NCBI GenBank assembly: GCA_023142595.1
Contig: JAGLJF010000003.1
Coordinates: forward strand, 3,873-67,872
Length of the DNA: 64,000 nt
From: Minisyncoccota bacterium
GTDB lineage: Bacteria > Patescibacteriota > Minisyncoccia > JAHIHE01 > JAGLIN01
Direction: 5' to 3'
Shown here: one piece after another, positions 20,393 through 46,542 of the stretch
Layout of the letters: each line of letters begins with the position of its first letter
Position numbering within the stretch: the first letter of the stretch is position 1
Notes under the pieces: model-generated
Told to the model about the DNA's origin: nothing
Databases searched by the model: none
What the model saw: the letters and a program-made list of their open reading frames with translations, nothing else
Translations under genes and position numbers: made by a program

Positions 20393-22213
20393 TTATAGTT
20401 TTCTTTTCACAAGTTCTTTTTTATAAAAATGCAGAACATCTTCTTCTTCGATAATAATATCTCCTTCATATGTTATTCCAGCATCATTTCCTTTTTTAAC
20501 TCCTTTCACTGCCTTCTTATTTGCCTGAAGTTCCTTGACAGTGCCTCCTCCGACAATCTCTTCATCTCTCAATACTTCAATTAATGCCCCTTTTTCAACT
20601 TTTCCGCTTTCCACTTTCGCCCCCACAATCATATCAACTTTTTTGGCCGATTTTTTGGCTGATTTAAAAATTGCAATTACTTTTCCAATTCCAAGATCTG
20701 TCCTAACTTCTTCTGGCTCAAGAATCAAGGTAAGTCCTTCTTTAATTTCATCAACAAGTTCATAAATAACTTTATAAATTTTTATTTCTACCTTTTCTTT
20801 TTCTGCAAATTTTTCTAAGACAGAGTTGGCATTAACATTAAATCCAATAATTTCTGCTCCTGAAGAATGACACATTTTGATGTCAGTTTCGGTTATATTT
20901 CCAACTCCCATTTTCAAAATCTGAACTGCTACGGTTTCGGATTCGATAGTTTCAAGAATTTGGACTATAGCTTCCAACGATCCTTTAGTGTCTGCTTTCA
21001 ACACAATATTCAATTTTTTTACTTTATGAGATTTTACAAGCTCTTTTATTTTAGCCGTACTGAGAACTTTGTCAGAAGGACCGTCCGACGACTGAAGTTT
21101 ATTAAATTCTTTTACTCTTGTTTCTGCAGCAAGCCGTCCCGATTCTTCAAGAAGAAATGAACCAACTTTTGGAACATCATTTAAACCTAAAATAGTAACT
21201 GGCATAGATGGAGTAGCTTTATGAACTCTTTTTCCGCTAAAATTTTCAATTCTCTTGATTCTTCCCCACATAGATCCAGCACTAATATAATCTCCTTCTT
21301 CCAGTGTTCCATTTTGTATCAAGACAATAGAGACTGGTCCTATTTGAGCATCCATATGAGATTCAATTACAAATCCCTCTGCAATGTCTGACGGATTTGC
21401 TTTAATTTCTTCCATATCAGCCGTCAAAATAATCATATCTAACAGCTCATCAATTCCTTCCCCAGTCTTTGCAGAAACATTAATGCAAATTGTTTTTCCA
21501 CCCCAATCTTCAGGAGCAAGGTCATTTTCTGCAAGCTCTTTTTTGACTTTTTCAATGTTTTTGTCAGCTTTATCGACTTTAGTAATAACAACTATAATCG
21601 GAACTTCAGCCTCTTTTGCAAACATGATAGCTTCTTTTGTTTGAGGCTTAACACCATCATCTGAAGCAACCACAATTACTGCCAAATCTGTAATATATGC
21701 CCCTCTTTCTCTCATAGAATAAAATGCTTCATGTCCAGGAGTATCGATAAAAGTTATGGTTTCCCCTTTTTTCTTAACTTGATAGGCACTAAAATTCTGA
21801 GTAATTCCACCGGACTCTCCGCTGGCTACATTTGTCTCAAGAATTTTATCCAAAAGAGTAGTCTTTCCATGATCAACATGTCCCATAATTACAACAACTG
21901 GAGGTCTTTTTTTGGCACCAGGCCCTGTATATTTTTTCATCTGTAATTTTCTCTTTTCGGCAATAGATTCTGATTTTTCCAACGTAAAATCAAAATGATC
22001 GGCAATAATTTCAGCAGTATCAAAATCAAGATATTCATTTATATTAGCAAAGATTCTGTTTTTAATAAGTTCTGAAATTAATTCAGTTGACTTTATTTCC
22101 ATTTTCTCAGCCAAATCCTTAACCATGATTTTTTCAGGCATCTGAAGAACCTTCTTGATATTTTCAGTTTTGGCATCTTCTTTTTCAATTTCTTCTTCTT
22201 GTTGCTTGACCAT
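20393..22213 (-). CDS. infB: Translation initiation factor IF-2
   Basis: G domain GHVDHGKTTLLD, DTPGH, TKVDK. C-terminal beta-barrel domains. Confidence 0.9.
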   Translation of the reverse strand: MVKQQEEEIEKEDAKTENIKKVLQMPEKIMVKDLAEKMEIKSTELISELIKNRIFANINEYLDFDTAEIIADHFDFTLEKSESIAEKRKLQMKKYTGPGAKKRPPVVVIMGHVDHGKTTLLDKILETNVASGESGGITQNFSAYQVKKKGETITFIDTPGHEAFYSMRERGAYITDLAVIVVASDDGVKPQTKEAIMFAKEAEVPIIVVITKVDKADKNIEKVKKELAENDLAPEDWGGKTICINVSAKTGEGIDELLDMIILTADMEEIKANPSDIAEGFVIESHMDAQIGPVSIVLIQNGTLEEGDYISAGSMWGRIKRIENFSGKRVHKATPSMPVTILGLNDVPKVGSFLLEESGRLAAETRVKEFNKLQSSDGPSDKVLSTAKIKELVKSHKVKKLNIVLKADTKGSLEAIVQILETIESETVAVQILKMGVGNITETDIKMCHSSGAEIIGFNVNANSVLEKFAEKEKVEIKIYKVIYELVDEIKEGLTLILEPEEVRTDLGIGKVIAIFKSAKKSAKKVDMIVGAKVESGKVEKGALIEVLRDEEIVGGGTVKELQANKKAVKGVKKGNDAGITYEGDIIIEEEDVLHFYKKELVKRKL

Positions 22214-28585: not shown

Positions 28586-29203
28586 ATGTCTCGGCTATAT
28601 AAGAATAAATTCAAAACTGAATCAACGAGATTGAAAAAATGGGACTATTCACAGAATGGTTTTTATTTTGTGACGATTTGCACGAATAATCATCAGTTGT
28701 TTTTTGGTGATGTAAAAAAATCAGAATCAGAACATTGTCCAATTTTTGAAATGAAAAAATCGCCCATTGGCAAAATCGCCGAAAAATATTGGTTAGAAAT
28801 TCCAAAACATTTTTCAAATGTAAAATTAGATGTATTTGTAATTATGCCAAACCATTTACACGGGGTAATTGAAATTTGTGATGATATTGTGATTGATAAA
28901 AATAAACCGTGCAAACATGTAGAGACGCAGCAATGCTGCGTCTCTACAACAACAAATAATGAATCAAAAACATTTTATAGATTAATTCCAAAATCACTGC
29001 CTGTTATTATTCGCTCATTTAAATCAATTTGTACAAAAACAATAAATCAGAAATTTGATGATAGAAATTTTTCCTGGCAATCGAAATACTATGATCATAT
29101 TATTAGAGATGAAAAATCATTAGACGAAATCAGAAAATATATTATTGATAATCCCGCAAAATGGGATTTGGATAAGAATGTTGTTGAGAATTTTTATAAA
29201 TAG
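28586..29203 (+). mobile_element. Second REP-associated tyrosine transposase (RAYT, IS200-like) carrying its own REP hairpin in-frame
   Basis: HuH motif MPNHLHGVIEI. Catalytic tyrosine region WQSKYYDHIIRDEKSLDEIRKYIIDNP. REP-B copies at 28525, 28919 (inside ORF) and 29241. Confidence 0.65.
28919..28947. repeat. REP hairpin family B, copy 2, located in-frame inside the RAYT ORF (encodes HVETQQCCVSTT)
   Basis: Same palindrome. The ORF remains open through it. Confidence 0.7.
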
Positions 29204-29609: not shown

Positions 29610-31064
29610 ATGGTATCAAATGAATATATCCCAGTAATTGTTTTTGTTGTTTTTGTTGTAATCTCTATAGCTTTTCTGTCTCGTTTGTACAAATGCTATG
29701 GAACAACTCAAAAATTAAAAGCAGAAAGAGAAAAAACGCAAGAAGAAAGAAGAGATATCGAAACCAACATTAGAAGGTCTCTGTCAGAAGGGATCGATAT
29801 TCGTCAGGAAAATGAAGATAACCGAAAGAGGCTTGCCGATCAAATAGATAAATTAAGAATAAAAGAAGTAGCTGAATGGAAAAAAATTATATTAGTAGGA
29901 ATAATAACCGCTTCATTTTTTGTTCTGTCGGTTGTGTTGTTAATTGAATTAATTTTATTTAGCAGCATAGGACAATACAGGCCTTTTATGTTTACATTAA
30001 CAGAAACGACGGTAATTCTGATAATTGTATGGATTATCTACAGAATTATTCTTAGTTCGACAAAAATCACATTAAAAAATAATGGGGTTGTTCTTTACTT
30101 TGATATACCAGACAAACAAGTGGGCGAAGGACCTATTTTTGCATGGTTTAAAGATGTGAGAATACCAGGAACAGATATCATAATTTCTAGAATAATAGAA
30201 ATTGAAAGAAAGGAAATTGTGTTCGATGTTCACAAAGATAAAACAATGTTGGCGGTCTCAGCTGATTCTACACAGCCCTTTTGGCTTGATGGTTATGTTA
30301 CATATAGAATAAAAGATATTGTCCAAACTATAATTACAACAGGAGAACATAGTCTTGATGGAATAAAGGACTATTTTGAAGGAAAAGAACAGGAGGCGTC
30401 TGTTGAAAATGAAGCCGGAGAAAAAGAAAAGATGAATATTAGAATGGGAGGTATTATAGATTTAACTTTCAGATCTTTTGTGAGAAATTTTTTCCGAGAA
30501 GCAGATAATTTTGGTATAAAAGATGGAGACACCGACGAAGTAGTAATCAATAAGGCGATTGGTGTGCAAGAACAACTTAGTAAGTCATTACACAGTCAGT
30601 TCGCATATCTTAAATATTTTGGAATAGAGCTTATGGCAACAGAAGCAACGGACATTAAGCCGTCTCAAGAAGTTGAAAATAGGCTCGTAAAAGCAAGAAC
30701 TAGCGCACAAGATATTGGCATAGCTACAAAAGAAAAAGATGCAGCTGTTGAAACAGGAAAAGTTGGACCTGAATTAATGAACATCTTTGAGAAAGATGCA
30801 AATTTTGTAATAACTCCAGAAATAAAAAGCGTTATAGCTCTCCTGACTATAAATGCTGATGCACTTAAAGGGGTTTTAGAGGGTTCGAACTTAAATATTG
30901 CATTGGTGCCAGCCATTAACAAACTTGCTGATGCAATTGGTGGCGGAAGTCCCACTTCTGCTGATACAAAAGACTTGGTGAATAAAGTTTTAAGCGAGAT
31001 TAAAAATGACCCACAAGGAATAAAAGCTGTTGTAGATCAAATAAAAAAAGCGAAAATGTTATAA
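29610..31064 (+). CDS. Membrane protein with SPFH/band-7-like domain (stomatin/prohibitin/flotillin superfamily), N-terminal coiled-coil and 3-4 TM helices
   Basis: FGIELMATEATDIKPSQEVENRLVKARTSAQDIGIATKEKDAAVETGK resembles the SPFH C-terminal helix region. An upstream beta-rich segment is SPFH-like. Confidence 0.45.
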   Translation: MVSNEYIPVIVFVVFVVISIAFLSRLYKCYGTTQKLKAEREKTQEERRDIETNIRRSLSEGIDIRQENEDNRKRLADQIDKLRIKEVAEWKKIILVGIITASFFVLSVVLLIELILFSSIGQYRPFMFTLTETTVILIIVWIIYRIILSSTKITLKNNGVVLYFDIPDKQVGEGPIFAWFKDVRIPGTDIIISRIIEIERKEIVFDVHKDKTMLAVSADSTQPFWLDGYVTYRIKDIVQTIITTGEHSLDGIKDYFEGKEQEASVENEAGEKEKMNIRMGGIIDLTFRSFVRNFFREADNFGIKDGDTDEVVINKAIGVQEQLSKSLHSQFAYLKYFGIELMATEATDIKPSQEVENRLVKARTSAQDIGIATKEKDAAVETGKVGPELMNIFEKDANFVITPEIKSVIALLTINADALKGVLEGSNLNIALVPAINKLADAIGGGSPTSADTKDLVNKVLSEIKNDPQGIKAVVDQIKKAKML

Positions 31065-31744: not shown

Positions 31745-31880
31745 CCAGGTTTCACGGGGAAGAATTATACCTTCCCTATTTTTTTGTTTATTTTTTTTAA
31801 AATATATTTCTGTAGCAATTCAATTATATAAATTACATCAGAGATACTACCTAATTCACAGGCAAAATTTACTTAACTCC

Positions 31881-32191: not shown

Positions 32192-34492
32192 ATGAACAAA
32201 AAAACAAAAACTTTTCAAAAATTTGCTCTTTTATTTCTCGTTGTTTTAGTTGGAATTAGTTTTCCGCAAAATTATGCTAATGCTGGTGTTGCTGAATTAT
32301 GGGATATAGCGACTGACCCCCTTGGTGTTGGCAAGGCATTGTTAAATATTCTTCAATTGTTAATTTATGGAATAGGACTTCTTCTTCTTGGAATTGTGGC
32401 TATCTTTGTCGAAATTTCTGCTTGGCTTATTGATGTTTTTCTTGACCCCAAAATCTATGTTGGACAACCTGCTACTGCATTTGCTCCTGCTATCCCAGGT
32501 GTTCTAACTTCAAATTCAATTTTAATTGGTTGGACAGTTGTCAGAGATATTTGTAATATGTTTTTTATGTTCTTTCTTCTAATCGTTGCTTTTGGAACAA
32601 TGCTCAGAAGTAAGTCAATAAACATCAAGGCAATTTTGCCAAAAATCATCATTTCTCTATTTTTGATTAATTTCAGTATGGTTTTTGCTTATCTGATCAT
32701 TGACATTAGCCAATTTTTTATGATTGAAATCAGCTCTTGGATGACAGGAGGATTTGCTCTGGCAGCTCAATCTCTTAGTACTATTCCAAACGGATTTAAA
32801 TCAGGTTTTGCTATTTTTGAAAACATTGGTGCCGTGGATACCTTTATGATTGTGAATATCATATTTGCTATTATATTTTCTGTTTGTCTAGTCTTTGTCT
32901 ATCTTTTGCTCGTAGGTTTCTTGCTTATTCGTTTGGTATATTTTGCGGTTCTGATTGTTTTTTCTCCTGTTGCCTTTTTGGGAATTGCTTTTCCAGGTTT
33001 GTCAAAATATTCCTCTCAATGGTGGTCAGAAATTACAAAATGGGCAATTTTTGGTCCAATTTTTATTTTCTTTGTCTATCTTTCAACCACGATGGCAAAC
33101 GAATTAGTTGGAACTGTGTTTGCGGATGTTTCTCCTGCATTTGGCTTTTTTGACAAAATAGCTCTGCTTGTTATCCCAGCTGTAGTCCCGCTTGTAATTT
33201 TGCTAATGGCTCCAAAATATGCATCTGATTCTGGAGTAGCAGGAGCCCAACAACTCGTCGGTGGCAGAGGCGGTCTTGGAAATATTTCAATGGGGTCTTA
33301 TGGTGTGGCGAAATGGGGAGCTGGAAAAACGAAGCAGGCTGGTGCATGGGGTGGCAGAAGAATTGGATATGATTCAAGAAGGATTGGTGATTCAGTTCGT
33401 GGAGGAACAAAAGCATTAGCAGGTAAAATACCTATCAAGCGTGTTAGAGAAAGAATTCAAGGTAAGATAGCGATACAAGAAGTGAATAGAAAGGGCAAAG
33501 ACAGAAAAAATATCGAAGAAAAGAAGTCTGATTTTAAAGAGTTTAATGGCAAAGATGCTATTATTGCAGCAAAGGGAATTGAAGCAAAGAAATTACGAAA
33601 AGGAGAATCGTTAAGCAAGGAAGATGAATCGAAATTTATTGCTCTTATAGAACATGCGGCAGCAAAAGGAGAAAATCTTAGTACTAATTTCTCAGAAGCG
33701 CAACTTGAAATGGCAACCAAACGGGGTGCAGATGTTGATGAAATTGCAAAACATGATCCTGTTGCAGCTGGAACAATGAAACATTCAAAAGATGCTACTA
33801 AATCAGCAGAAGATCATACTGCTGAATATATGCAAGAACACGCTGAATCAGGAGACTGGAAAAAATATAGTGAACACACTAGACGAAATAACTTTGTAGA
33901 TATGGTAGAACATATTGATTCGAAAGATTTGCAAAATCATATCAAAGGTTCAGGTCCAAAAGCAAAGAAGGATTATGAAATTGGTGCTGATCAGATGATG
34001 CAAAAGTTAAAAGAAGAAATTACTGCTAATTTAACTAAAGGAACTCCAGCTGATATTGCGAAGGCTGCAGACTTAGGGAAAGAGCTTCAAAAAGCTCGAA
34101 AGAAAATCAGAAAAGTGACTGGTAATCTTGAAATTTCTGACGCAGAAAGAAATAGTGATGGATATAGAATGAGCGAAGATGCAAGCGGTACAACAACGCC
34201 ATTGGGCCATGGAGAGAAAGCGCCTACTGGTAGTAGTATTCAGTTAAATGCACCACTAATGCAAGAAGCAGTAAAAGTAACTGGAGGAGCTGACTTTAAA
34301 AAACTGACAAGCGAAAGTAAAGTTGCTTATGCGAAACATGCGAACGCAGATAATATTAATAGCTTACGATTGAAAGAGGAGGGTTCAGATGACTTGCAAG
34401 CAGTAGCAGATGAAATAAAGAAACGTCCAACTACCGATCCTGTACATATAGCAGCAGCTTCTCATGAAATATTAGGAAAATATATGACTTAA
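32192..34492 (+). CDS. VirB6/TrbL-like polytopic membrane protein of a type IV secretion-like system, with long K/E-rich hydrophilic C-terminal extension
   Basis: Signal peptide plus about 8 TM helices in the first ~350 aa. Located 1 kb upstream of PrgI-like and VirB4 genes. Confidence 0.4.
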   Translation: MNKKTKTFQKFALLFLVVLVGISFPQNYANAGVAELWDIATDPLGVGKALLNILQLLIYGIGLLLLGIVAIFVEISAWLIDVFLDPKIYVGQPATAFAPAIPGVLTSNSILIGWTVVRDICNMFFMFFLLIVAFGTMLRSKSINIKAILPKIIISLFLINFSMVFAYLIIDISQFFMIEISSWMTGGFALAAQSLSTIPNGFKSGFAIFENIGAVDTFMIVNIIFAIIFSVCLVFVYLLLVGFLLIRLVYFAVLIVFSPVAFLGIAFPGLSKYSSQWWSEITKWAIFGPIFIFFVYLSTTMANELVGTVFADVSPAFGFFDKIALLVIPAVVPLVILLMAPKYASDSGVAGAQQLVGGRGGLGNISMGSYGVAKWGAGKTKQAGAWGGRRIGYDSRRIGDSVRGGTKALAGKIPIKRVRERIQGKIAIQEVNRKGKDRKNIEEKKSDFKEFNGKDAIIAAKGIEAKKLRKGESLSKEDESKFIALIEHAAAKGENLSTNFSEAQLEMATKRGADVDEIAKHDPVAAGTMKHSKDATKSAEDHTAEYMQEHAESGDWKKYSEHTRRNNFVDMVEHIDSKDLQNHIKGSGPKAKKDYEIGADQMMQKLKEEITANLTKGTPADIAKAADLGKELQKARKKIRKVTGNLEISDAERNSDGYRMSEDASGTTTPLGHGEKAPTGSSIQLNAPLMQEAVKVTGGADFKKLTSESKVAYAKHANADNINSLRLKEEGSDDLQAVADEIKKRPTTDPVHIAAASHEILGKYMT

Positions 34493-34504
34493 AAAATTTA
34501 TTTT

Positions 34505-35329
34505 ATGTATAATATTAAGATAATGAGTGAAGAAAAAAACGAAAAAGATAAAAAAAATGATGAGATGATGCGAAAAGTCAGGCTTTTGCCAGATTTTGTT
34601 TATGATGCATTACTGATAAATGAGGGAATTTCAGCAAATTCAGAAATTATTGAAAAGTATGAATTAAATGATGAACAAAAAGACAAAATGTTAGATTTGA
34701 ATTTGAATATTATTTTCAAAGAACTTGCAATTGAAAATTTGTCTGATTCTATTGAACAAAATTTGAAAGTGAACAAAGAAACAGCTTCACAAATTACGCT
34801 TGATCTCTTTTTGAAGAAATTTTATCTAGCAGCCAGTTATTTTCCTGGAATTGAGGATGAGATTTTGAGACTTGGTGGGGAAATACCGAAGGAGAAGCCG
34901 AAAAAATTAGGGGAGCAACTTTTGAAAAGAGAAGAAGAGATGGATAGGATAAAAGAAGAAGAAAAACGAGCAGAAGCCGAAAGAATGGCGGATACGATTA
35001 TTTCAAAATCTGTTGATGAGTTATTGAAAGAATTTCCAATTGTTGGAAATCAACAAATTGGTTCTCAAGAATCAATCACCCTTAAAACAAAACCTGAACC
35101 AATGAAGCCGTTGATAAAATACTGGCTAGAAGATTACAAAGAAAAAATGGGTTATTACAATCATTCAAATATCGAAAGAGTTCAATATGTCTATCACGAC
35201 AAAAACACAAAAAATATGAATGAAGAAGAAAGAAGGCAGTTAAATTTGATTTTAAAATCAGCCGACGAAAAAATCCCCCTCCCATATTCCACAAAAAGCA
35301 AGAAAATTGATTTTTCAAGAATTGAATAA
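34505..35329 (+). CDS. Hypothetical soluble acidic/coiled-coil protein within T4SS-like locus
   Basis: No recognisable motifs. Co-directional, 12-nt gap from the VirB6-like gene. Confidence 0.3.
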   Translation: MYNIKIMSEEKNEKDKKNDEMMRKVRLLPDFVYDALLINEGISANSEIIEKYELNDEQKDKMLDLNLNIIFKELAIENLSDSIEQNLKVNKETASQITLDLFLKKFYLAASYFPGIEDEILRLGGEIPKEKPKKLGEQLLKREEEMDRIKEEEKRAEAERMADTIISKSVDELLKEFPIVGNQQIGSQESITLKTKPEPMKPLIKYWLEDYKEKMGYYNHSNIERVQYVYHDKNTKNMNEEERRQLNLILKSADEKIPLPYSTKSKKIDFSRIE

Positions 35330-35451
35330 ATTTTTAACCTGTCGTAAAGTAAATCATTCGTCTCTAAGAGCCTCTTAAAGGCTCTTAGAGACTGAAGCTA
35401 TCTTACAGCGGGGACAAATAAAACTCAATGATAATCACCTAACAACAACCC

Positions 35452-35895
35452 ATGCAATATAGTGTTCCTCAATTTTTAAACATTGAAGATAAAATTGTTG
35501 GTCCGTTCACGGGCAAACAAGTTCTTTTTCTGATTATGGGATTCGGAGTTCTACTGATTTCTTTTACTTTTTTTAATATGGCATTTTTTGCAATCATTGC
35601 TATTCTGGTTATTCCAATCACCTTAGCTTTTGCTTTTTGGAAACCAAAAGGAATGACAGTTTCACGCCTAATAACAAATATGATCAATTTTCATACCACC
35701 TCTCATCTTTATGTTTGGAGAAGAGAACCAAATCTGAGGATGTATAAAATGACTCAAAGAAAAGTAGCTAAAGATAGCATTGGAGAGAAAAAAGTTTCCA
35801 AAAGAAGAATCAGAGAATTAGCATGGCTGCTTGATACAAGTACTTCTATAGACACTCCTTTCGAAGCAAAAACAAGACCCGATGAGAATATTTAA
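35452..35895 (+). CDS. PrgI-family (VirB3-like) T4SS membrane protein
   Basis: N-terminus MQYSVPQFLNIEDKIVGPFTGKQVLFLIMG followed by two TM helices matches the PrgI/VirB3 pattern. Confidence 0.55.
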   Translation: MQYSVPQFLNIEDKIVGPFTGKQVLFLIMGFGVLLISFTFFNMAFFAIIAILVIPITLAFAFWKPKGMTVSRLITNMINFHTTSHLYVWRREPNLRMYKMTQRKVAKDSIGEKKVSKRRIRELAWLLDTSTSIDTPFEAKTRPDENI

Positions 35896-35985
35896 GCAAA
35901 TTGTTGAATTAAATGTATAAAAAATCTTCTTTATCTTTTTATAAAAATTACGAATAAAAAACTAACAATTTAACAATCTAATTAT

Positions 35986-36657
35986 ATGTCTACACCAGAT
36001 AAACAAAAGAAAAAAGGCTTAAGCACGCAAAAATATCTTGAAATTGCTGAAATAAAAGATGGCGTTGTTATTATGAAAAATGGAAGCATGAGAGCTGTCC
36101 TTATGGTTTCATCAATTAATTTTGCTTTAAAATCAATTGATGAACAAGACGCAACGATTTATCATTTTCAAAGTTTTTTAAATTCTCTTGATTTTTCAAT
36201 CCAAATTGTCGTAAATTCTCGAACCTTGAATCTTGATAATTATTTGCAAATTCTCAAAGATAACGAGAAAAGACAAATGAATGAACTTCTTCGCATGCAA
36301 ACGGCAAGCTACATTGAATATATTCAAGGGCTGGTGAAAATGGCAAATATTGTCAATAAAACATTTTATATAGTTGTTCCATTTTCAGTCTCAGAGTCAA
36401 AAGGAGGCACCATGAAAGCTTTAAAGGGGTCAATAAGTGCTCAAAAACTGATTTCTAACAGAGCTACATTCGAAAAATACAAAGATCAACTTTTTCAAAG
36501 AGTTGATCATGTTGTAGGAAATTTAGGTGGTTCAGGGCTAAAGATGACAATGTTGAATACACAAGAATTAATCGAGCTTTATTATAATTTATATAATCCA
36601 GAAAGTTCTGAAAAGAAAGCCTTGGCAGACATTGAAGACCTTGATTTGGCAATGTAA
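35986..36657 (+). CDS. VirB4/TrbE-family ATPase, N-terminal segment (split gene or pseudogene part 1)
   Basis: YLEIAEIKDGVVIMKNGSMRAVLMVSSINFALKSIDEQDATIYHFQSFLNSLDFSIQIVV matches the conserved VirB4/TrbE N-terminus (dgvv.tkdGsl.a.f.v.G..fe...). Stop, then 37 nt, then the next ORF. Confidence 0.55.
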   Translation: MSTPDKQKKKGLSTQKYLEIAEIKDGVVIMKNGSMRAVLMVSSINFALKSIDEQDATIYHFQSFLNSLDFSIQIVVNSRTLNLDNYLQILKDNEKRQMNELLRMQTASYIEYIQGLVKMANIVNKTFYIVVPFSVSESKGGTMKALKGSISAQKLISNRATFEKYKDQLFQRVDHVVGNLGGSGLKMTMLNTQELIELYYNLYNPESSEKKALADIEDLDLAM

Positions 36658-36696
36658 AAAATTTCTCTATACAAAGTAATTAATAATAAATTATAT

Positions 36697-38517
36697 ATGT
36701 TGAAAAATAAAATTACTAAAAAACAGAAAGTCCAAGCTCCAACTGACAAGTCTGCTCTTTTAGATTCTGAAAAAATGTACCAAAAGGGAATGGCGACTGT
36801 AAAAGATATTATTGCTCCATCAGCTTTCAAAATTGAAAGTGACCATGTGATGATTAATAAAAAACTAGCTACTACCTTTTTTGTTTATGCCTATCCTCGA
36901 TTTCTGCAAACAAATTGGTTTTCTCCAATTATTAATCTTGATACAACATTCGATATTGCAATGTTTATTCATCCACAAAAATCCGCTGATGTTTTGAAAA
37001 GTTTGCTGAAACTAGTTACTCAACTTCAATCTCAAATGTCTATCGAAGAAGAGAAAGGTATGGTTCGAAATCCAATGCTTGAGACTGCATATCAAGACGC
37101 TGAAGGTTTGAGAGACGATCTTCAACAAGGCGTTGAACATTTTTTTCAGTTTGGACTTTATGTGACAATTTATGGAGATACGAAAGAGGAATTGGAAAAA
37201 ATTGAAACAAGCATCGAATCTGTTCTGGAAGCAAAATTAATTTATATGAAATCAGCCATTATGCAAATGGAAGAAGGTTTCAACTCCACTCTTCCTCTTG
37301 GAAACGACAAGTTGATGATTGGAAATAATATGAATACTTCCCCACTCTCAACTGCATTTCCTTTTGTTTCCAGCGATCTGACATCCAATCAAGGAATTTT
37401 ATATGGAATTAATCGACATAATAATAGTTTGATTCTATTTGACAGATTTTCTATGGAAAATGCAAACATGGTCATTTTCGCCAAATCAGGTGCGGGAAAA
37501 AGTTATGCAGTCAAGCTTGAAATTTTGAGAAGTTTGATGATGGAATCTGATGTAATTGTAATTGATCCAGAAGATGAATATAAACATCTTTGTGACACAG
37601 TCGGAGGAACATTTATGAAAATTTCCCTGTCTTCCAGAAATCATATTAACCCTTTTGACTTACCAACTGCTATTGGAGACGAAACTCCAGCAGATGTTCT
37701 TCGAAAAGCCATTTCTGATGTTGCAGGACTTATTCGAGTTATGCTTGGTACAATTACTGCTGAAGAAGATTCAATTTTAGATCGAGCCATCGCAGAAACT
37801 TATGCAATCAAAGATATTACAGCAGAAGCTGATTTTTCAACCCTTGAACCTCCAACAATGTCAGATTTGCAAATGGTTTTGGAAAATATGAGTGGAGCAG
37901 AAAGTCTTTCAACAAGAATTAAAAAATATACCGAAGGAACTTTTGCAGGTTTTTTGAATCACAAAACAAATATTGATGTTGAGTCTGGAATGGTGGTCTT
38001 CAATATCAGGGATATGGAAGAAGAACTCAGGCCAGTTGCAATGTATTTGGTTTTACACTATATTTGGACACTGATTAGATCAAAAACAAAAAAGAGGGTG
38101 ATGGTTGTTGATGAAGCTTGGATTATGATGAAACATGAAGACGCAGCATCATTCCTTTTTGGAATCGCCAAAAGATGCAGAAAATATTATCTCGGGCTGA
38201 CAACAATTACTCAAGATGTGACAGATTTTATGAGTTCAAGATACGGAAAACCGATTGTGACAAACTCATCAATGCAACTTCTTTTGAAACAATCACCAGC
38301 TGCAATCAAGACTATTGTGGATACATTCTATCTTACCGACGAAGAAAAGTTTTTGCTTTTGGAAAGTAACATTGGAGAAGGAATTTTCTTTGCTGGTTCA
38401 AAAAGAGCGGCCATCAAAATTGTGGCTTCATATTCCGAGGATCAAATCATCACTTCCGACCCAGAGCAACTTCTGGAAATTGAAAAAGCAAAAAAAGAAC
38501 TTTCAGAAATGGCATAA
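36697..38517 (+). CDS. VirB4/TrbE/CagE-family T4SS ATPase, main body (Walker A/B)
   Basis: DIIAPSAFKIESDHVMINKKLATTFFVYAYP N-domain. Walker A FAKSGAGKSY. Walker B RVMVVDEAWIMM. Conserved TQ motif. Confidence 0.8.
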   Translation: MLKNKITKKQKVQAPTDKSALLDSEKMYQKGMATVKDIIAPSAFKIESDHVMINKKLATTFFVYAYPRFLQTNWFSPIINLDTTFDIAMFIHPQKSADVLKSLLKLVTQLQSQMSIEEEKGMVRNPMLETAYQDAEGLRDDLQQGVEHFFQFGLYVTIYGDTKEELEKIETSIESVLEAKLIYMKSAIMQMEEGFNSTLPLGNDKLMIGNNMNTSPLSTAFPFVSSDLTSNQGILYGINRHNNSLILFDRFSMENANMVIFAKSGAGKSYAVKLEILRSLMMESDVIVIDPEDEYKHLCDTVGGTFMKISLSSRNHINPFDLPTAIGDETPADVLRKAISDVAGLIRVMLGTITAEEDSILDRAIAETYAIKDITAEADFSTLEPPTMSDLQMVLENMSGAESLSTRIKKYTEGTFAGFLNHKTNIDVESGMVVFNIRDMEEELRPVAMYLVLHYIWTLIRSKTKKRVMVVDEAWIMMKHEDAASFLFGIAKRCRKYYLGLTTITQDVTDFMSSRYGKPIVTNSSMQLLLKQSPAAIKTIVDTFYLTDEEKFLLLESNIGEGIFFAGSKRAAIKIVASYSEDQIITSDPEQLLEIEKAKKELSEMA

Positions 38518-39272
38518 ACCTGAACTCTTATTATTTGTCATTCTGAATTCATTTCAGAATCTTAGTTAAATTAGATTTGAATCTATACTTTTTTACATAA
38601 TACTTTTATTTATAAAAAACATATATATTCTATAAATATCATACAGGTGCTAGTATATTCATCTGTCATCTCAGAATTTATTCCGAAACGATAGTGCAGG
38701 AATAAATGTCTGAGATCCAGTTTGTTTCGTTTATTAGAATCATTGTATAAACCGTTTTTGCATCATTAATTATTTTCTTTTCTTATAAAACCTTACAAAA
38801 TATATTATTTATTGAGACTTACTGGATTCCAGATAAATTTTTCTTTTGACTCTTAATTGTTAGATTGTCCAGCGTTGTATATACTTTTATAATTACCATT
38901 AGTATCAATTGTCATCCTCAGCTTGACTGAGGATCCAGAATAGACTGAGATAAATTTTAATTTAGGCTTGATACAGCCAAAAGATAATAATCCTAGATTC
39001 CCGCAGGAGTTTATGCTGAATTAATTTCAGTGCGGGAATGACAAATAAGTTTAATGTAATGTATATAACTATTTTTAAAAAGTATAGGAAGCGCTGAAAA
39101 ATCTTACATATTAATAGTAAAATTTTCTGAAATGACAATATTTTGCCACTAAATTAATAAACATTTATACTATAAATGGTTTATTAATTCACTGACGTAA
39201 TTTTATCAACAAATTAAGTACCATTTATAAAAATAGCAACCCAAAGATATTATATAAAAGCAAAAGAGCAAT

Positions 39273-40256
39273 ATGAGTGTTTCATCTAAAAACAATCAAG
39301 AAAACAAAAAGAGGAATAACAATTCTTCTTCTTTTGATAATGATATCTCAAACTCAAAAACGAAATCTGATTCGACTCAATCTAAAGATTCAAACAATAT
39401 ATTGAAGCAAAAATTAATCGAAAAAATAAAAAAAGGCGCAAAAGAAAAGATGGAAAAAATTGAAGATTCTGAAAAGGAAGATGATTATCAAGCTTTAAAT
39501 AAATCAGAATCTAAGAAATCTGGAGCTTCACGACTGGATTCTCCATCAAAATCAAATTTATTGCCTCAGAATCGGAGAGTTGACAATAATAAAGATAATG
39601 AACTAAACAGAATCAAAAATGAATCACAAAGCGATGTGCAAATAGAAAAAATAAGAAAAGAGGCGCAAGAAAAGTCTGAAAAAGAAGCTGAAGAGGCATT
39701 AAAAAATATTCAAGATAGAAAAGCAAGATTTATAATTAAACTAGCAGGAAAACATGCAGAACAAGCTGCTTATACTATTGCAGCAAAAATGGCAAAAATG
39801 GCAGATGATGGCGGTATGATGGCATTTTTTGTGATGGCATTGAGCCTATTTCTCGCTATTATAAAAGACATAATTGACATTGGCGAAGTAGGACTTTTAG
39901 CATTTCTTGCTACTATTGTGGCAATTCCCGTAGTGATAGCAATTGAGAGCGTTTTTTGGTTTATAAATTTTGGCATAACGCTAATAAATATATATTTTTG
40001 GACCATTCTTTTGGGAGGTAGTCATAAAAAATGGTTTTGGAAAAGAATCTATAAAACAATTCTATTGTCTGGACTTGATTTTCTGCCAGGCATTGATGCA
40101 ATTCCATTTATGACATTAATGGTTCTTTGGAATATTTCTGATTATTATAAAGCAAGAAAAGAAGCAAAAGCGGATTTGAAAAAATTTATGATTGATTATA
40201 AGAGTACGGGAAAAGTCAATAAAGCAACTGCTGAAAAATATGTTGGATCTATATAA
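39273..40256 (+). CDS. Hypothetical protein: S/N/K-rich low-complexity N-terminus, C-terminal multi-TM region
   Basis: ORF with TM cluster FFVMALSLFLAIIKDII...WFINFGITLINIYFWTILLGG. Within the T4SS-like neighbourhood. Confidence 0.3.
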   Translation: MSVSSKNNQENKKRNNNSSSFDNDISNSKTKSDSTQSKDSNNILKQKLIEKIKKGAKEKMEKIEDSEKEDDYQALNKSESKKSGASRLDSPSKSNLLPQNRRVDNNKDNELNRIKNESQSDVQIEKIRKEAQEKSEKEAEEALKNIQDRKARFIIKLAGKHAEQAAYTIAAKMAKMADDGGMMAFFVMALSLFLAIIKDIIDIGEVGLLAFLATIVAIPVVIAIESVFWFINFGITLINIYFWTILLGGSHKKWFWKRIYKTILLSGLDFLPGIDAIPFMTLMVLWNISDYYKARKEAKADLKKFMIDYKSTGKVNKATAEKYVGSI

Positions 40257-40470
40257 TAATTTGAAAATTATAATTTTATTTTCTACATAATTTATTTTGG
40301 TTTATTATTACTGTAGATTAGTATATAATAAAAATAAGTATGTTTAAAATAAAAGAGATTCTTATGACCAATTGTCATTCTGAGAGAACGCGATTGTCAT
40401 TCTGAGTGAAACGAAGAATCTCAAAATAAAGTTTATCAATAAATTTCAATAAACCATAATTTTTAAAAAT

Positions 40471-41565
40471 ATGAAAATAAAAAATTATTTAATTGGTGCA
40501 TTCCTCTTGGTGAGTTCTTTCGCTTTTGTCGGCATTGTTAGTGCTGCTACAACTTGGGATCCGCTAGTGAAAATTCCAGGAATTCCATCGACGGGAATTA
40601 ATCTCTCAACATATTTGGTTGGACTTTATAATTTTATGCTAAGCGTTGTCGGAATTGTAGCAGTGATGATGTTAATCGTAGCTGGTATGAGATATATCAC
40701 CGCAGCTGGAAATGCGACTTCGGTCACTGACGCCAAAAGCATCGCAGGAAATGCAGTTGTTGGATTGCTTCTGGCTTTGCTTTCTTTTGTTATCCTCAAA
40801 ACAATCAACCCAGATGTCTTATATCTCAAAAAACCAGGCAGTGGTTTCGCTGGTACTACTGGCACCCCAGTAGATTTGGGTAGTTGCGGTTCTTATGATA
40901 GCGCTGGTGTTTGTACCTGTGCTAACAATGAAATAATAACACCTGCTGTTGCTAATGCAGCTGCTTGCAACACTGCATGCGAAGCCTCTCCAGAGCTTTG
41001 TCGTGCCGCTCCAAAAAATGTTTGTTTACTAAAAGCATCAGAGCCTGGAGATACTAACTGCTATTGTATTAACAAAAACACAATTCCAATAGGAACAGCA
41101 ACTAATTGCCAAGATGCTTGTGCTGTAAGTGATTGTGTAGTGGCGGATTTAAGAGTAGGACCATCGCCTAATCCAAAAGATAAATCAGCTTCTGTTAAAA
41201 TAGATGAAAATGTCTATTTAGACGCAAGATCTTATTCAGTAGATTATTCCTATAATAATTTAAATAGATTTGTTGATTACGACGATCCTTCTTTTGACAA
41301 TGGAATTGATAGATATGAAATGTGTTTTGACGAAGAAAACCCTGCTGCTTGTATCACTTTAAATCACGGCTGCTCTGATGGTGCATCTTGTAGTTGGGTT
41401 ACAGGTGCTCTCGGTTGGATTGGTTCTACATTTCTTGCTTGGGCACCATGTGGAACAGATGTAACATCATATGGCGGTGGTGGTACAAAAAAAATAAAAC
41501 TTTATGTGAGATCAACAAATGGTTGTATTATAGCAACAGATGAAGTTATTGTGAATGTTAACTAA
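40471..41565 (+). CDS. TrbC/VirB2-like pilin domain fused to a ~250-aa cysteine-rich C-terminal extension
   Basis: Signal peptide, then two hydrophobic helices separated by TAAGNATSVTDAKS (classic VirB2/TrbC topology), then a domain with >20 Cys (CGSYDSAGVCTCANNE...CNTACEASPELCRAAPKNVC...). Confidence 0.5.
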   Translation: MKIKNYLIGAFLLVSSFAFVGIVSAATTWDPLVKIPGIPSTGINLSTYLVGLYNFMLSVVGIVAVMMLIVAGMRYITAAGNATSVTDAKSIAGNAVVGLLLALLSFVILKTINPDVLYLKKPGSGFAGTTGTPVDLGSCGSYDSAGVCTCANNEIITPAVANAAACNTACEASPELCRAAPKNVCLLKASEPGDTNCYCINKNTIPIGTATNCQDACAVSDCVVADLRVGPSPNPKDKSASVKIDENVYLDARSYSVDYSYNNLNRFVDYDDPSFDNGIDRYEMCFDEENPAACITLNHGCSDGASCSWVTGALGWIGSTFLAWAPCGTDVTSYGGGGTKKIKLYVRSTNGCIIATDEVIVNVN

Positions 41566-41592
41566 CAAAAAAATAAGAAGGTTTAATCCTTC

Positions 41593-42243
41593 TCATGTTA
41601 ATTTTACAACTAAAAAATTTATTTCTTTGGGATGTAAATTTGTTCGACTTGTTTGTGGATTATCTTTTCCAAAAACAAAATAAGTTCTTTCTGCTGGATT
41701 AACATTTAATCCGCCACTAGAAATACCTAATTTTGCTAATGTTCCTTCGTCTTTTAAGCCTTCTATACTTATTCCAATGTGAATAAGTCTTGATCCATGA
41801 TTTTCAGCATAACCTCTTATCCCAGTATCTTTATATTCCGTAATCGTAACATAGCATTCTTTATATAAAGGATGTTCAATTGTTTTCGGAAGTTCATTTA
41901 TCGCAACAAGACCATTTAACCCACCAAAACTGTCAACGATTTGCTTAAATCGGATACCTTGATTATAAAAATCAAGCTCTGACTGTGTTGTTATAGATAT
42001 AGTCGGATTTACAGAATCTGCATCTTCTGTTTTAGCCTCTTCTTTGTTAGCATTCAATTCTGGATTTAATCCCAATTTTTCGGTTTGCTGAACTTCTGAT
42101 TGTTCATCTCTTGTATCACTAGCAATTCCTATTAGCGTCATTGCTACAATTAAGATTATTGCAAGCATTAATCCAATTATAACAAATTTTGAACCTCCCC
42201 TTAAAGGATTATTTACATTTGCATTGTCTGGCATATCTATCAC
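41593..42243 (-). CDS. Hypothetical N-terminally membrane-anchored extracytoplasmic protein
   Basis: SD AAGGAGTGA. TM at residues ~20-42. Confidence 0.35.
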   Translation of the reverse strand: MIDMPDNANVNNPLRGGSKFVIIGLMLAIILIVAMTLIGIASDTRDEQSEVQQTEKLGLNPELNANKEEAKTEDADSVNPTISITTQSELDFYNQGIRFKQIVDSFGGLNGLVAINELPKTIEHPLYKECYVTITEYKDTGIRGYAENHGSRLIHIGISIEGLKDEGTLAKLGISSGGLNVNPAERTYFVFGKDNPQTSRTNLHPKEINFLVVKLT

Positions 42244-42970: not shown

Positions 42971-44038
42971 CTATTGAATCCCTTTGAACATCGGCATTCC
43001 ATTGTCAGGACTAGTCGGTACATAAATTGTTCCTTCTCTGTCTTTGAGTTCTCTGATATATAAGTAGTTCAAATATTCAGCAGTCAAACTTTCATTAATT
43101 GTCTTTTGAGCATCTCTTTGTCCTTCTGCCTCAATTCTTTTTCGATCTGCTTCTTTCTTTTCTTTTTCTAAAACAAAATCATACCTTTGACTTTCTTGCT
43201 GTGCTTGAAGTTTTTCTTGAATGCTGGCATCAAGCTTTTCTGGAAGAATTACATTTCGAAGAAGAACTTGCTCAATGGCAATTCCTCTTGGCTCAATGTT
43301 GTCTGCCATTTTTTGCCTAATGGTATTGATTATTTCATCTCTTTTGTCTGAGTAGATTGATTTTGAATCATATCCTGCTACAACTTCTCGAATTGCGCTT
43401 CTGATTTCAGGTCTAATGATTTTTTCCTGATAATTTATTCCCAATTCTTTATATACATCAGAAGCACTGTCTTCTACAAGATGATAAAAAACAGTAATAT
43501 CAAGTTTGACGGTTAGCCCTTCGCTTGTCAGAGCATCAATGGAATCGTCTCCAATTTTTTCGCCCTCTCCTTGTACAACACTCATAGTGTATTGTTCGGT
43601 TCTAATGCTTAGTTTTGTTATCTGAGCGAGAGGATTGATTATATGAAGTCCAGATTTTACTTCAGCATCTTTTACTTTCCCAAACAAATGATAAACCCCT
43701 GTTTCTCCTGCAGGAATAATGACAATGGAATTTGCAAGAACGATTAGAGATAAGATAATCACTATAACTGTACTTGTTGTTTTTTTATCCATAAATTTTG
43801 AATTTAGTTTATTAAAAAATTGATTTGAATTATTTGAAGAAAAAAATTGTTTGCCATCTTTCATTCCAGAAAAATTGAGATCAATCCCCTTTTTTCTCGA
43901 TTCTTCTTTAATGGCAAGAAATACAGGAAGAAGAAAAACTGCTCCAAAAATTAACCAGAAGATTAGTGATGGTTTGAATATTAATAAAAATATAAATATC
44001 CAAATTATTGTTTTTGTTAATTGTTCTTTGTTTTGCAT
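42971..44038 (-). CDS. SPFH/band-7 family protein (prohibitin/HflC-like), N-terminal TM
   Basis: Full-length SPFH similarity: IPAGETGVYHLFGKV..., EQVLLRNVILPEKLDASIQEKLQAQQESQR, coiled-coil tail. Confidence 0.8.
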   Translation of the reverse strand: MQNKEQLTKTIIWIFIFLLIFKPSLIFWLIFGAVFLLPVFLAIKEESRKKGIDLNFSGMKDGKQFFSSNNSNQFFNKLNSKFMDKKTTSTVIVIILSLIVLANSIVIIPAGETGVYHLFGKVKDAEVKSGLHIINPLAQITKLSIRTEQYTMSVVQGEGEKIGDDSIDALTSEGLTVKLDITVFYHLVEDSASDVYKELGINYQEKIIRPEIRSAIREVVAGYDSKSIYSDKRDEIINTIRQKMADNIEPRGIAIEQVLLRNVILPEKLDASIQEKLQAQQESQRYDFVLEKEKKEADRKRIEAEGQRDAQKTINESLTAEYLNYLYIRELKDREGTIYVPTSPDNGMPMFKGIQ

Positions 44039-45145: not shown

Positions 45146-45337
45146 ACTATTGTCGTTTTGTCTTTTGAAAATTTACATTAAATATTATGTAACTCAAGTA
45201 TACATTAATTTTCAATATAAGTGAAATTTTTGTTTATTGATTGACTGTTTCATCTAATATGATATTATTCTAATAGAAAATGAGTAACAATTCAGTAACC
45301 TAACCTTCAGACTTTTTGTTTGGAGTATGGTTTAAAT

Positions 45338-45442
45338 CCACTCGCGTAGAAACGGTCTTCTGATCGGTACTACGCGAGTGGTCTTTACCTGAAAGGGTAT
45401 TGGGCAATCCGAAAGGGTCGCCGCCGACGGAAGACCTTTTTT
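45338..45442 (+). ncRNA. Candidate structured RNA / cis-regulatory leader upstream of the secreted nuclease gene
   Basis: Perfect 12-bp stem (CCACTCGCGTAG...CTACGCGAGTGG). Its loop (GGTCTTC) is complementary to a 3' GAAGACC followed by a T-run, giving pseudoknot/terminator potential. Locally GC-rich in an AT-rich genome. Confidence 0.3.
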
Positions 45443-45477: not shown

Positions 45478-46542
45478 ATGAAAATGAAAAAAATATTAAG
45501 TATTGTATTTTTGCTTTCACTGGTTGTAAGTTTTATTTCTATAACACCAAACATAAACGCAATGCAAATTCCAGAAGGAGCGATTATAAAAACTGATAAT
45601 AATCCTGATGTATATATTGTGAAATATAAAAACGGAAAACAATTTAAAAGGTTGGTTTTGAATCCTCAAGTTTTTGAAAGCTATAGTCATTTGAGATGGA
45701 GAGATATTTTGACCGTTAGTCAAATCGAAATGGATTCTTTTATTGTTTCTGATTTAGTGAAAGTAGATGCACAAACTGATATTTATCAGCTTGTGCCAAA
45801 TGGCGATATCGGAACTAAAGTTTTAATAGAATCAACTGTTGGCTATGATTTAGATTCAGCTTATACTATAAATTTAGTAGATTTTGGAAATTATGTAACG
45901 GGAGAAGTTAGGGGAATAATTGATACTGATAGTTATCCAAACGAGACCCAAAATAATATCTATACCGTGAATAGAGTTGTTGATGGTGATACTATAGAAG
46001 TTAATGTTAATAGTGTATTAGAAAAAGTCAGGTTGTTGGGTATAAATACACGAGAAACAGTTGATCCAAGAAAATCAGTTGAATGTTTTGGTATAGAGGC
46101 GTCCAATAAAGCAAAGATGGTTTTAATGGGTCAAAATATTGAACTTGTGGCGGATAACACTCAGGGCGATCGTGACAAATATAACCGTCTTCTCCGATAT
46201 GTTTTTCTGGAAGATGGAACTAATTTTAATAAAATGATGATTAGTGAAGGATATGCTTATGAATATACATACAATACATCATATAAATATCAAGTCGAAT
46301 TTAAACAGGCAGAAAAAGTAGCTATGGAAGCAAAAAGAGGTCTTTGGGCAACTAGTGTATGTGATTCACAATCCGCTCCTGTATCTGATCAATATAATTG
46401 CTCTAGTAATGTTTATAACTGTACGGATTTTTCTACTCACGCTGAAGCTCAATCTGCTTTTGAATCCTGCGGTGGGACAGCTAATGATATCCATAGACTT
46501 GATGGCGATAATAATGGTATTGCGTGTGAATCATTACAATAA
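45478..46542 (+). CDS. Secreted thermonuclease (SNase-like) with N-terminal unknown domain and C-terminal Excalibur Ca-binding domain
   Basis: Signal peptide. SNase motifs (VVDGDTIEV...RLLGINTRE...YNRLLRYV...RGLW). Excalibur tail CTDFSTHAEAQSAFESCGGTANDIHRLDGDNNGIACE. Confidence 0.7.
   Translation: MKMKKILSIVFLLSLVVSFISITPNINAMQIPEGAIIKTDNNPDVYIVKYKNGKQFKRLVLNPQVFESYSHLRWRDILTVSQIEMDSFIVSDLVKVDAQTDIYQLVPNGDIGTKVLIESTVGYDLDSAYTINLVDFGNYVTGEVRGIIDTDSYPNETQNNIYTVNRVVDGDTIEVNVNSVLEKVRLLGINTRETVDPRKSVECFGIEASNKAKMVLMGQNIELVADNTQGDRDKYNRLLRYVFLEDGTNFNKMMISEGYAYEYTYNTSYKYQVEFKQAEKVAMEAKRGLWATSVCDSQSAPVSDQYNCSSNVYNCTDFSTHAEAQSAFESCGGTANDIHRLDGDNNGIACESLQ

Follow-up and report, generated by a model that had tools for sequence, protein, structure and literature searches.

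In this study, we ask whether two neighboring open reading frames (ORFs) that together read as one VirB4, the ATPase that drives the type IV secretion system (T4SS), are two genuine genes, one gene expressed through a programmed recoding site, or the remains of a gene broken by a recent mutation. These were the three readings offered by the original prediction, which was made from the letters and their translations. The ORFs lie in a stretch of 64,000 nucleotides (nt) from a Minisyncoccota bacterium (assembly GCA_023142595.1, contig JAGLJF010000003.1, positions 3,873 to 67,872), hereafter the window, with a guanine plus cytosine (GC) content of 31.6%. The protein pair is deposited as MCK5412821.1 and MCK5412822.1 from a Candidatus (Ca.) Paceibacterota metagenome-assembled genome. 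We find, with a probability of about 0.9, that it is the standard two-gene form of the Patescibacteria T4SS motor VirB4, a TrsD-like protein plus an ATPase, produced by fission in a linker of the N-terminal domain. The comparative data described below uphold the genuine split gene and go against both programmed recoding and a recent pseudogene.

The first ORF (ORF1, 35986-36657, plus strand) encodes 223 amino acids (aa) and the second (ORF2, 36697-38517, plus strand) encodes 606 aa, coordinates and lengths that were given exactly by the original prediction; combined they amount to 829 aa. The motifs quoted there were all located on the plus strand, namely EIKDGVV...DEQDA (36049-36153) and FQSFLNSL (36166-36189) in ORF1, and DIIAPS (36805-36822), the Walker A motif GAGKS (37489-37503; aa 265) and the Walker B motif VVDEAW (38104-38121; aa 470) in ORF2. 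The two ORFs share a frame, and the TAA at 36655-36657 is the sole internal stop in the translation of 35986-38517. This stop and the AT-rich intercistronic spacer behind it occupy 36655-36696 (plus strand); the spacer itself (36658-36696) measures 39 nt, or 13 sense codons, and ends where ORF2 opens with its ATG. A single stop had been correctly described, and the gap given earlier as 37 nt is a trivial discrepancy. In the deposited annotation, ORF1 is a 'hypothetical protein' and ORF2 a 'DUF87 domain-containing protein'.

By its profile and structure matches, ORF2 is a VirB4-type T4SS ATPase. It scores 365.4 bits against the NCBIfam model NF045971 (VirB4-like, CD1110 family; curated cutoff 325 bits) over positions 173-730 of 752, and it covers positions 282-893 of 894 in the NCBIfam model VirB4_plasma. 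Its Pfam matches are P-loop_TraG (93 bits, cutoff 25.8), DUF87 and AAA_10, and both Walker motifs fall inside this P-loop TraG/DUF87-type domain. In the PDB, the C-terminal domain solved for Thermoanaerobacter VirB4 (4AG5) was matched by aa 226-586 (E 2.9e-43), and residues 446-735 of R388 TrwK were matched by aa 257-553. The protein is laid out as the second part of the N-terminal domain (aa 1-225) followed by the C-terminal ATPase domain (aa 226-586). Because its alignments begin at positions 173-282 in four full-length NCBIfam models (for TraC at 226 of 800, for VirB4_CagE at 248 of 792), the ORF2 polypeptide does not carry a complete N-terminal domain and is best described as a VirB4 ATPase without approximately the first 170-280 family positions.

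ORF1 is a homologue of the TrsD/TraD family and corresponds to the beginning of the VirB4 N-terminal domain, split off as a protein of its own. Among the NCBIfam models, it matches VirB4_plasma at positions 96-284 (E 7e-11), the CD1110 VirB4 at positions 11-118, VirB4 PRK13853 at positions 11-66, and the TrsD/TraD model NF041427 at positions 21-200 of 201 (E 5.4e-7). The score of the last match, 29.6 bits, is below the curated cutoff of 200 bits, so that ORF1 is a homologue and not a member by NCBI's strict criterion. Nevertheless, it has the attributes of TrsD/TraD proteins: it is homologous to the N-terminal portion of VirB4, stands alone, is about 200 aa long, and lies directly upstream of virB4 after a VirB3-like gene, a gene order that recurs in 10 Patescibacteria loci and in two Bacillota plasmid loci. 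A Pfam scan of ORF1 returned nothing meaningful even at E ≤ 10, and a sequence search against the PDB returned a chance match only; its database homologues bear the precomputed family PF26593. An AlphaFold2 model built from 45 homologues had a predicted local distance difference test (pLDDT) score of 65.7 and a predicted template modeling (pTM) score of 0.51. When this model was compared with the PDB by Foldseek, the top 14 matches were all R388 TrwK/VirB4 chains (probability about 1.0, TM-score up to 0.46), and nothing outside TrwK/VirB4 came close among the PDB fold matches. The 223-aa product matches the VirB4 N-terminus far better than chance would allow and is not, then, a separate family unrelated to VirB4 N-termini, the outcome that the original prediction had set against itself.

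It follows to ask whether the two pieces add up. ORF1 and then ORF2 occupy positions 96-284 and 282-893 of VirB4_plasma, and positions 11-118 and 173-730 of CD1110. In what follows, P-numbers denote database homologues of ORF1, L001-L012 related loci, and L013 and L014 Bacillota plasmid loci. Two relatives are fused, P0269 (797 aa, from Ca. Colwellbacteria) and P0232 (898 aa). Residues 8-233 of P0269 correspond to aa 14-219 of ORF1 and residues 226-791 to aa 31-595 of ORF2; the junction is a linker of variable length, almost absent in P0269 and approximately 100 aa long and Pro/Ala-rich in P0232. Since both ORFs are collinear with the models and with the fused relatives, together they would make one whole VirB4; judged from these alignments, they tile it with nothing missing and with the break in the variable linker. 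The proposal that ORF1 is the N-terminal part and ORF2 the remainder of one VirB4 of normal length is borne out by profile, fused-relative and fold evidence alike, and the alignment to full-length VirB4 suggested as a check gave collinear coverage with no residues missing at the junction.

The same data bear on another possibility, in which the VirB4 of ORF2 is short but complete and ORF1 is an accessory paralogue that merely duplicates the VirB4 N-domain. ORF2 alone does exceed the CD1110 VirB4 cutoff (365 vs 325 bits), and some Gram-positive VirB4s are short, for example pIP501 TraE of about 650 aa. However, the region absent from ORF2 is exactly the region matched by ORF1, each segment is present once and in the same order in the fused relatives, and the short Bacillota VirB4s that we inspected also have a TrsD-like gene immediately upstream. 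We consider an accessory paralogue improbable.

We next consider whether the split is peculiar to this genome. When 5.8 billion proteins were searched, ORF1 had 6769 homologues; the 120 best matches (58-96% identity) are without exception shorter than 270 aa, and their median length is 224 aa. HMMER, run exhaustively on 50%-identity cluster representatives, gave 2244 matches. Of the best 150, 148 stand alone (99 shorter than 270 aa and 49 with lengths of 270-450 aa), and no more than 2 are fused. The six longer representatives that were inspected (P0132, P0140, P0141, P0154, P0170 and P0172) carry disordered, low-complexity C-terminal tails rich in Pro, Gln and Ala after the conserved domain of approximately 220 aa. 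The inspection of related genomes that had been called for was made with 10 loci from GTDB genomes holding both genes, and the two genes are separate in every one. Compared with L001, ORF1 has a ratio of nonsynonymous to synonymous substitution rates (dN/dS) of 0.03 and ORF2 one of 0.02, and both ORFs are under strong purifying selection. The existence of the full-length fused relatives P0269 and P0232 is what a recent nonsense mutation or an assembly error, leaving a VirB4 pseudogene in the window genome, could appeal to. Against it, the split recurs in all 10 loci and, at identities as low as 36%, in thousands of proteins from the databases; the same protein pair recurs on several independent contigs (identical proteins on 8 for ORF1 and on 5 for ORF2); and 50 columns of ORF1 are invariant in the alignment of 45 homologues. 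Because the split is so widely common and both halves evolve at a dN/dS of 0.02-0.03, we reject the pseudogene, to which we attach practically no probability.

Programmed readthrough of the TAA at 36655-36657, or some other recoding there, would instead join the ORFs into a single VirB4 of approximately 843 aa. The window seems to invite it, with the ORFs in frame and one stop and 13 sense codons apart, and L007 is likewise in frame with a single stop. However, the in-frame relation is not kept: relative frames 0, 1 and 2 are all present among the 10 loci, and the spacers measure 1, 2, 10, 30, 42, 214, 296, 321, 393 and 457 nt. L001, which is 96% identical, has a 214-nt spacer and another frame, and in L009, which is 94% identical, the ORF1 homologue ends in TAATAA. 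The out-of-frame loci include L003, L004, L010, L011 and L012, and in L004 a complete gene for a 125-aa four helix bundle protein (5716-6093 of that locus; TIGR02436, E 2e-37) stands between the TrsD-like and VirB4 genes. L005 (393 nt) and L008 (321 nt) are in frame, but in that frame their spacers only open some 6-21 nt ahead of the ORF2 start. Moreover, the RNA fold at the junction did not differ from that of shuffled sequence (z = −0.23), and thus no significant structure that could stimulate readthrough is present there, and ORF2 has its own ATG after an AT-rich leader that is also found in relatives. A readthrough-prone stop context, which the original prediction had proposed to look for, was not found at the junction, as TAAA is ordinary for the gene cluster: all seven cluster genes end in TAA, and four of them, ORF1 and three others, in TAAA. 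Because the in-frame relation is unconserved, RNA structure is lacking and the stop context is ordinary, we reject recoding as very improbable. The shared frame and single TAA of the window are coincidental; a shared frame has a prior chance of one in three.

Apart from these arguments, the spacer between the TrsD and VirB4 genes appears as a repeated landing site for small repeat-bearing inserts (L001, 5670-5886; L003, 5670-5968; L008, 582-905; L005, 5670-6065). The L001 insert has a unit related to an element at 38909-38947 of the window (…GTCGTCCTCAACC…ATCCAGAATAGACTG…GGGAATGACAT), L003 and L008 have a common insert of about 300 nt with the ends ATTGTCATTGCGAG and CTCGCAATGACAAT, and the L005 insert has inverted arms of 63 nt. 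These inserts look like the elements of Patescibacteria that resemble miniature inverted-repeat transposable elements. The protein inserted in L004 is also a weaker match to the Avd family of diversity-generating retroelements.

The standard two-gene motor can be pictured as follows. Firstly, the gene would have split long ago at a flexible linker within the N-terminal domain of VirB4, leaving proteins of approximately 220 and 600 aa. Secondly, ORF1 and ORF2, with the PrgI gene upstream, would be co-transcribed in one cluster and translated independently. The two polypeptides may then reassemble non-covalently into a VirB4-like unit and so rebuild the N-terminal domain, and the TrsD-like piece may supply the surface through which the ATPase is anchored to VirB3 and to the membrane complex, by analogy with R388 TrwK/VirB4 (7O41, 8RTB). 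Macé et al. are said to have placed, in 2022, such a docking role on the VirB4 N-terminal domain. Some points weigh against this picture. The R388 structure and synteny are the grounds for expecting the two polypeptides to reassemble and to bind PrgI/VirB3. By its score (29.6 vs 200 bits), ORF1 appears to be a distant homologue of the staphylococcal TrsD prototype, and the confidence of its predicted model is moderate (pLDDT 65.7, pTM 0.51), with modest TM-scores (up to 0.46) in the fold matches. The sole ground for co-transcription is the absence of consensus terminator and promoter sites, and the scans for these are weak at 32% GC. Finally, fused forms nest among split ones, which would fit either direction of evolution.

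This last point comes from a neighbor-joining tree, computed on 591 columns of the ATPase part with the two Bacillota plasmid sequences as its root, in which both fused proteins fall inside the Patescibacteria split forms. Of 100 bootstraps, 99 separated L011, L012 and the Bacillota sequences from the rest, and only 8 grouped the fused forms with each other. Since fused forms are nested among split forms, fission or fusion at the linker has happened more than once in this tree, and two re-fusions are indistinguishable by parsimony from one fusion and one re-fission. The linker of P0232, approximately 100 aa long, resembles the tails of the longer representatives, which suggests a fusion via stop loss in a long-tailed form. 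The break in the N-domain might itself be functional rather than neutral: the TrsD-like piece might serve as an adaptor that can be exchanged and that links part of the ATPase subunits to PrgI/VirB3, or links them at certain times only. On this view the linker might be a recurrent hinge of fission and fusion, given that fused forms nest among split ones, a third of the cluster representatives are long-tailed and mobile DNA has repeatedly entered the spacer. We regard this as rather unlikely and put it forward only tentatively; were it true, Patescibacteria and pGO1-type systems would have a control of T4SS assembly that a single-chain VirB4 lacks.

The two genes lie in a chromosomal region, within a putative T4SS gene cluster. 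The first gene of the putative operon (32192-34492, plus strand) encodes a polytopic membrane protein of 766 aa that has no Pfam or NCBIfam match; from its position and hydrophobic repeats only, it may be VirB6-like. It is followed by genes for a 274-aa protein (34505-35329) and, directly upstream of ORF1, for a PrgI-family (VirB3-like) small membrane protein of 147 aa (35452-35895, plus strand; Pfam PF12666, E 2.8e-9, 37.8 bits vs a cutoff of 27). Downstream of ORF2 come a 327-aa membrane protein (39273-40256) and, as the last cluster gene, a 364-aa protein (40471-41565, plus strand) with a T4SS-pilin-like N-terminal segment (PF18895 T4SS_pilin, E 7.6e-5; 23.1 bits, under the cutoff of 26.6). 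A terminator-like site precedes the cluster (31756-31777) and a terminator-like hairpin follows it (41576-41593). Site scans found no terminator and no above-chance promoter in the ORF1-ORF2 spacer, although promoter and terminator scans here performed no better than on shuffled sequence and say little on transcription. A Shine-Dalgarno sequence was found in none of the seven cluster genes (32192-41565); these begin after AT-rich leaders, several with ...TTATATATG or ...AATTATATG, which suggests initiation independent of Shine-Dalgarno pairing in the host lineage. The neighbors are housekeeping genes, such as those for IF-2, a UvrD/Rep-type helicase, KsgA and tRNAs, and neither a relaxase nor a coupling protein was seen in the scanned stretch, about 19-55 kb of the window.

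Other features of the window are recorded here in their own right. The IF-2 ORF (20393-22213) is also 606 aa long, the same length as ORF2 by coincidence. Between the VirB4 gene and the next gene lie about 750 nt (38518-39272) of repeat-bearing DNA with no credible ORF, which is unusual for a genome as compact as this one; this interval holds several short hairpin units, among them TTGTCATCCTCAGCTTGACTGAGGATCCAGAATAGACTG (38909-38947) and CCCGCAGGAG...CAGTGCGGGAATGACAA (about 39000-39045), and no Rfam family and no tRNA were found in it. The flanks of the cluster (28586-29203, 29610-31064 and 42971-44038) contain an ORF with a weak match to IS200-like Y1 transposases (E 1e-4) and two SPFH/Band-7 proteins. 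A LOOT RNA (45297-45422, plus strand; Rfam RF03000, 67.3 bits vs a gathering score of 46.4) is located directly upstream of a secreted-nuclease-like gene (45478-46542) with SNase and Excalibur domains.

For annotation, the two-gene motor means that the 'hypothetical' ORF1 becomes a TrsD-like protein and the 'DUF87' ORF2 a VirB4, two parts of one T4SS motor, and that automated pipelines should not call such gene pairs pseudogenes or recoding candidates. The collinear tiling also yields a concrete hypothesis for the function of TrsD/TraD, namely that it would be the missing N-terminal subdomain of VirB4. Among known systems, R388 TrwK (7O41, 8RTB) is 823 aa long, close to the combined 829 aa, but it is one polypeptide where the window has two; ORF2 matches both TrwK and the C-terminal domain of Thermoanaerobacter VirB4 (4AG5), and the ORF1 model matches the TrwK fold. 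A tblastn search with ORF1 matched 145 Bacillota plasmids, 79 of them typed as conjugative, at 25-33% identity. The two that were inspected (L013 and L014) have a pilin gene (CagC/VirB2), a small unnamed gene, a gene of approximately 210-240 aa, annotated trsD in one of them, and a DUF87/VirB4 gene of approximately 650 aa, and they encode a lytic transglycosylase one or two genes past VirB4; the small unnamed gene upstream of TrsD is, by position, presumably VirB3-like. The TrsD-TrsE pair of pGO1/pSK41 and the TraD-TraE pair of pIP501 (MPF_FATA, pGO1 subclass; NF041427) are like the window in that a stand-alone protein of approximately 200 aa directly precedes a VirB4 of approximately 650 aa and follows a small gene at the place of VirB3. 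These plasmid systems act in conjugation and possess a relaxase and a type IV coupling protein, whereas the system of Patescibacteria lies on the chromosome and has a presumed role in the epibiotic lifestyle, and the pGO1-type TrsD is distant from ORF1 in sequence (29.6 bits vs the cutoff of 200; 25-33% identity).

The closest likeness is to the TrsD and VirB4 pairs described in Patescibacteria, where TrsD has been reported to have remote homology to the VirB4 N-terminus and to be the commonest T4SS component (Quiñonero-Coronel et al., 2025, Microb Genom, PMC12102498). That work reported 2,272 TrsD homologues, of which 1,664 are neighbors of virB4. The paper cited for the homology of TrsD and VirB4 is Guglielmini et al. 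(2014; PMC4027160); its main text does not mention TrsD, and the claim stands on PMC12102498. TrsD is among the essential genes of Ca. Southlakia epibionticum (PMC12102498, citing Wang et al., 2023), and the Patescibacteria T4SS, which is also treated in a 2025 review (PMC12857230), is reported to be essential for epibiotic growth (PMC12102498; PMC12857230). The original prediction, right about the split, had recognized neither the small ORF as one of a named family, TrsD/TraD, nor the arrangement as one found across the lineage and already in print (PMC12102498). The two-gene arrangement of TrsD and VirB4 is thus real, ordinary and already in the literature. The window shares with the published pairs the lineage, the gene pair, the PrgI/VirB3 neighbor and a nearby pilin-like gene; where that work treats TrsD as a separate component, the pair studied here explicitly tiles a full-length VirB4 and has rare fused relatives, and otherwise the two agree in all matters of substance.

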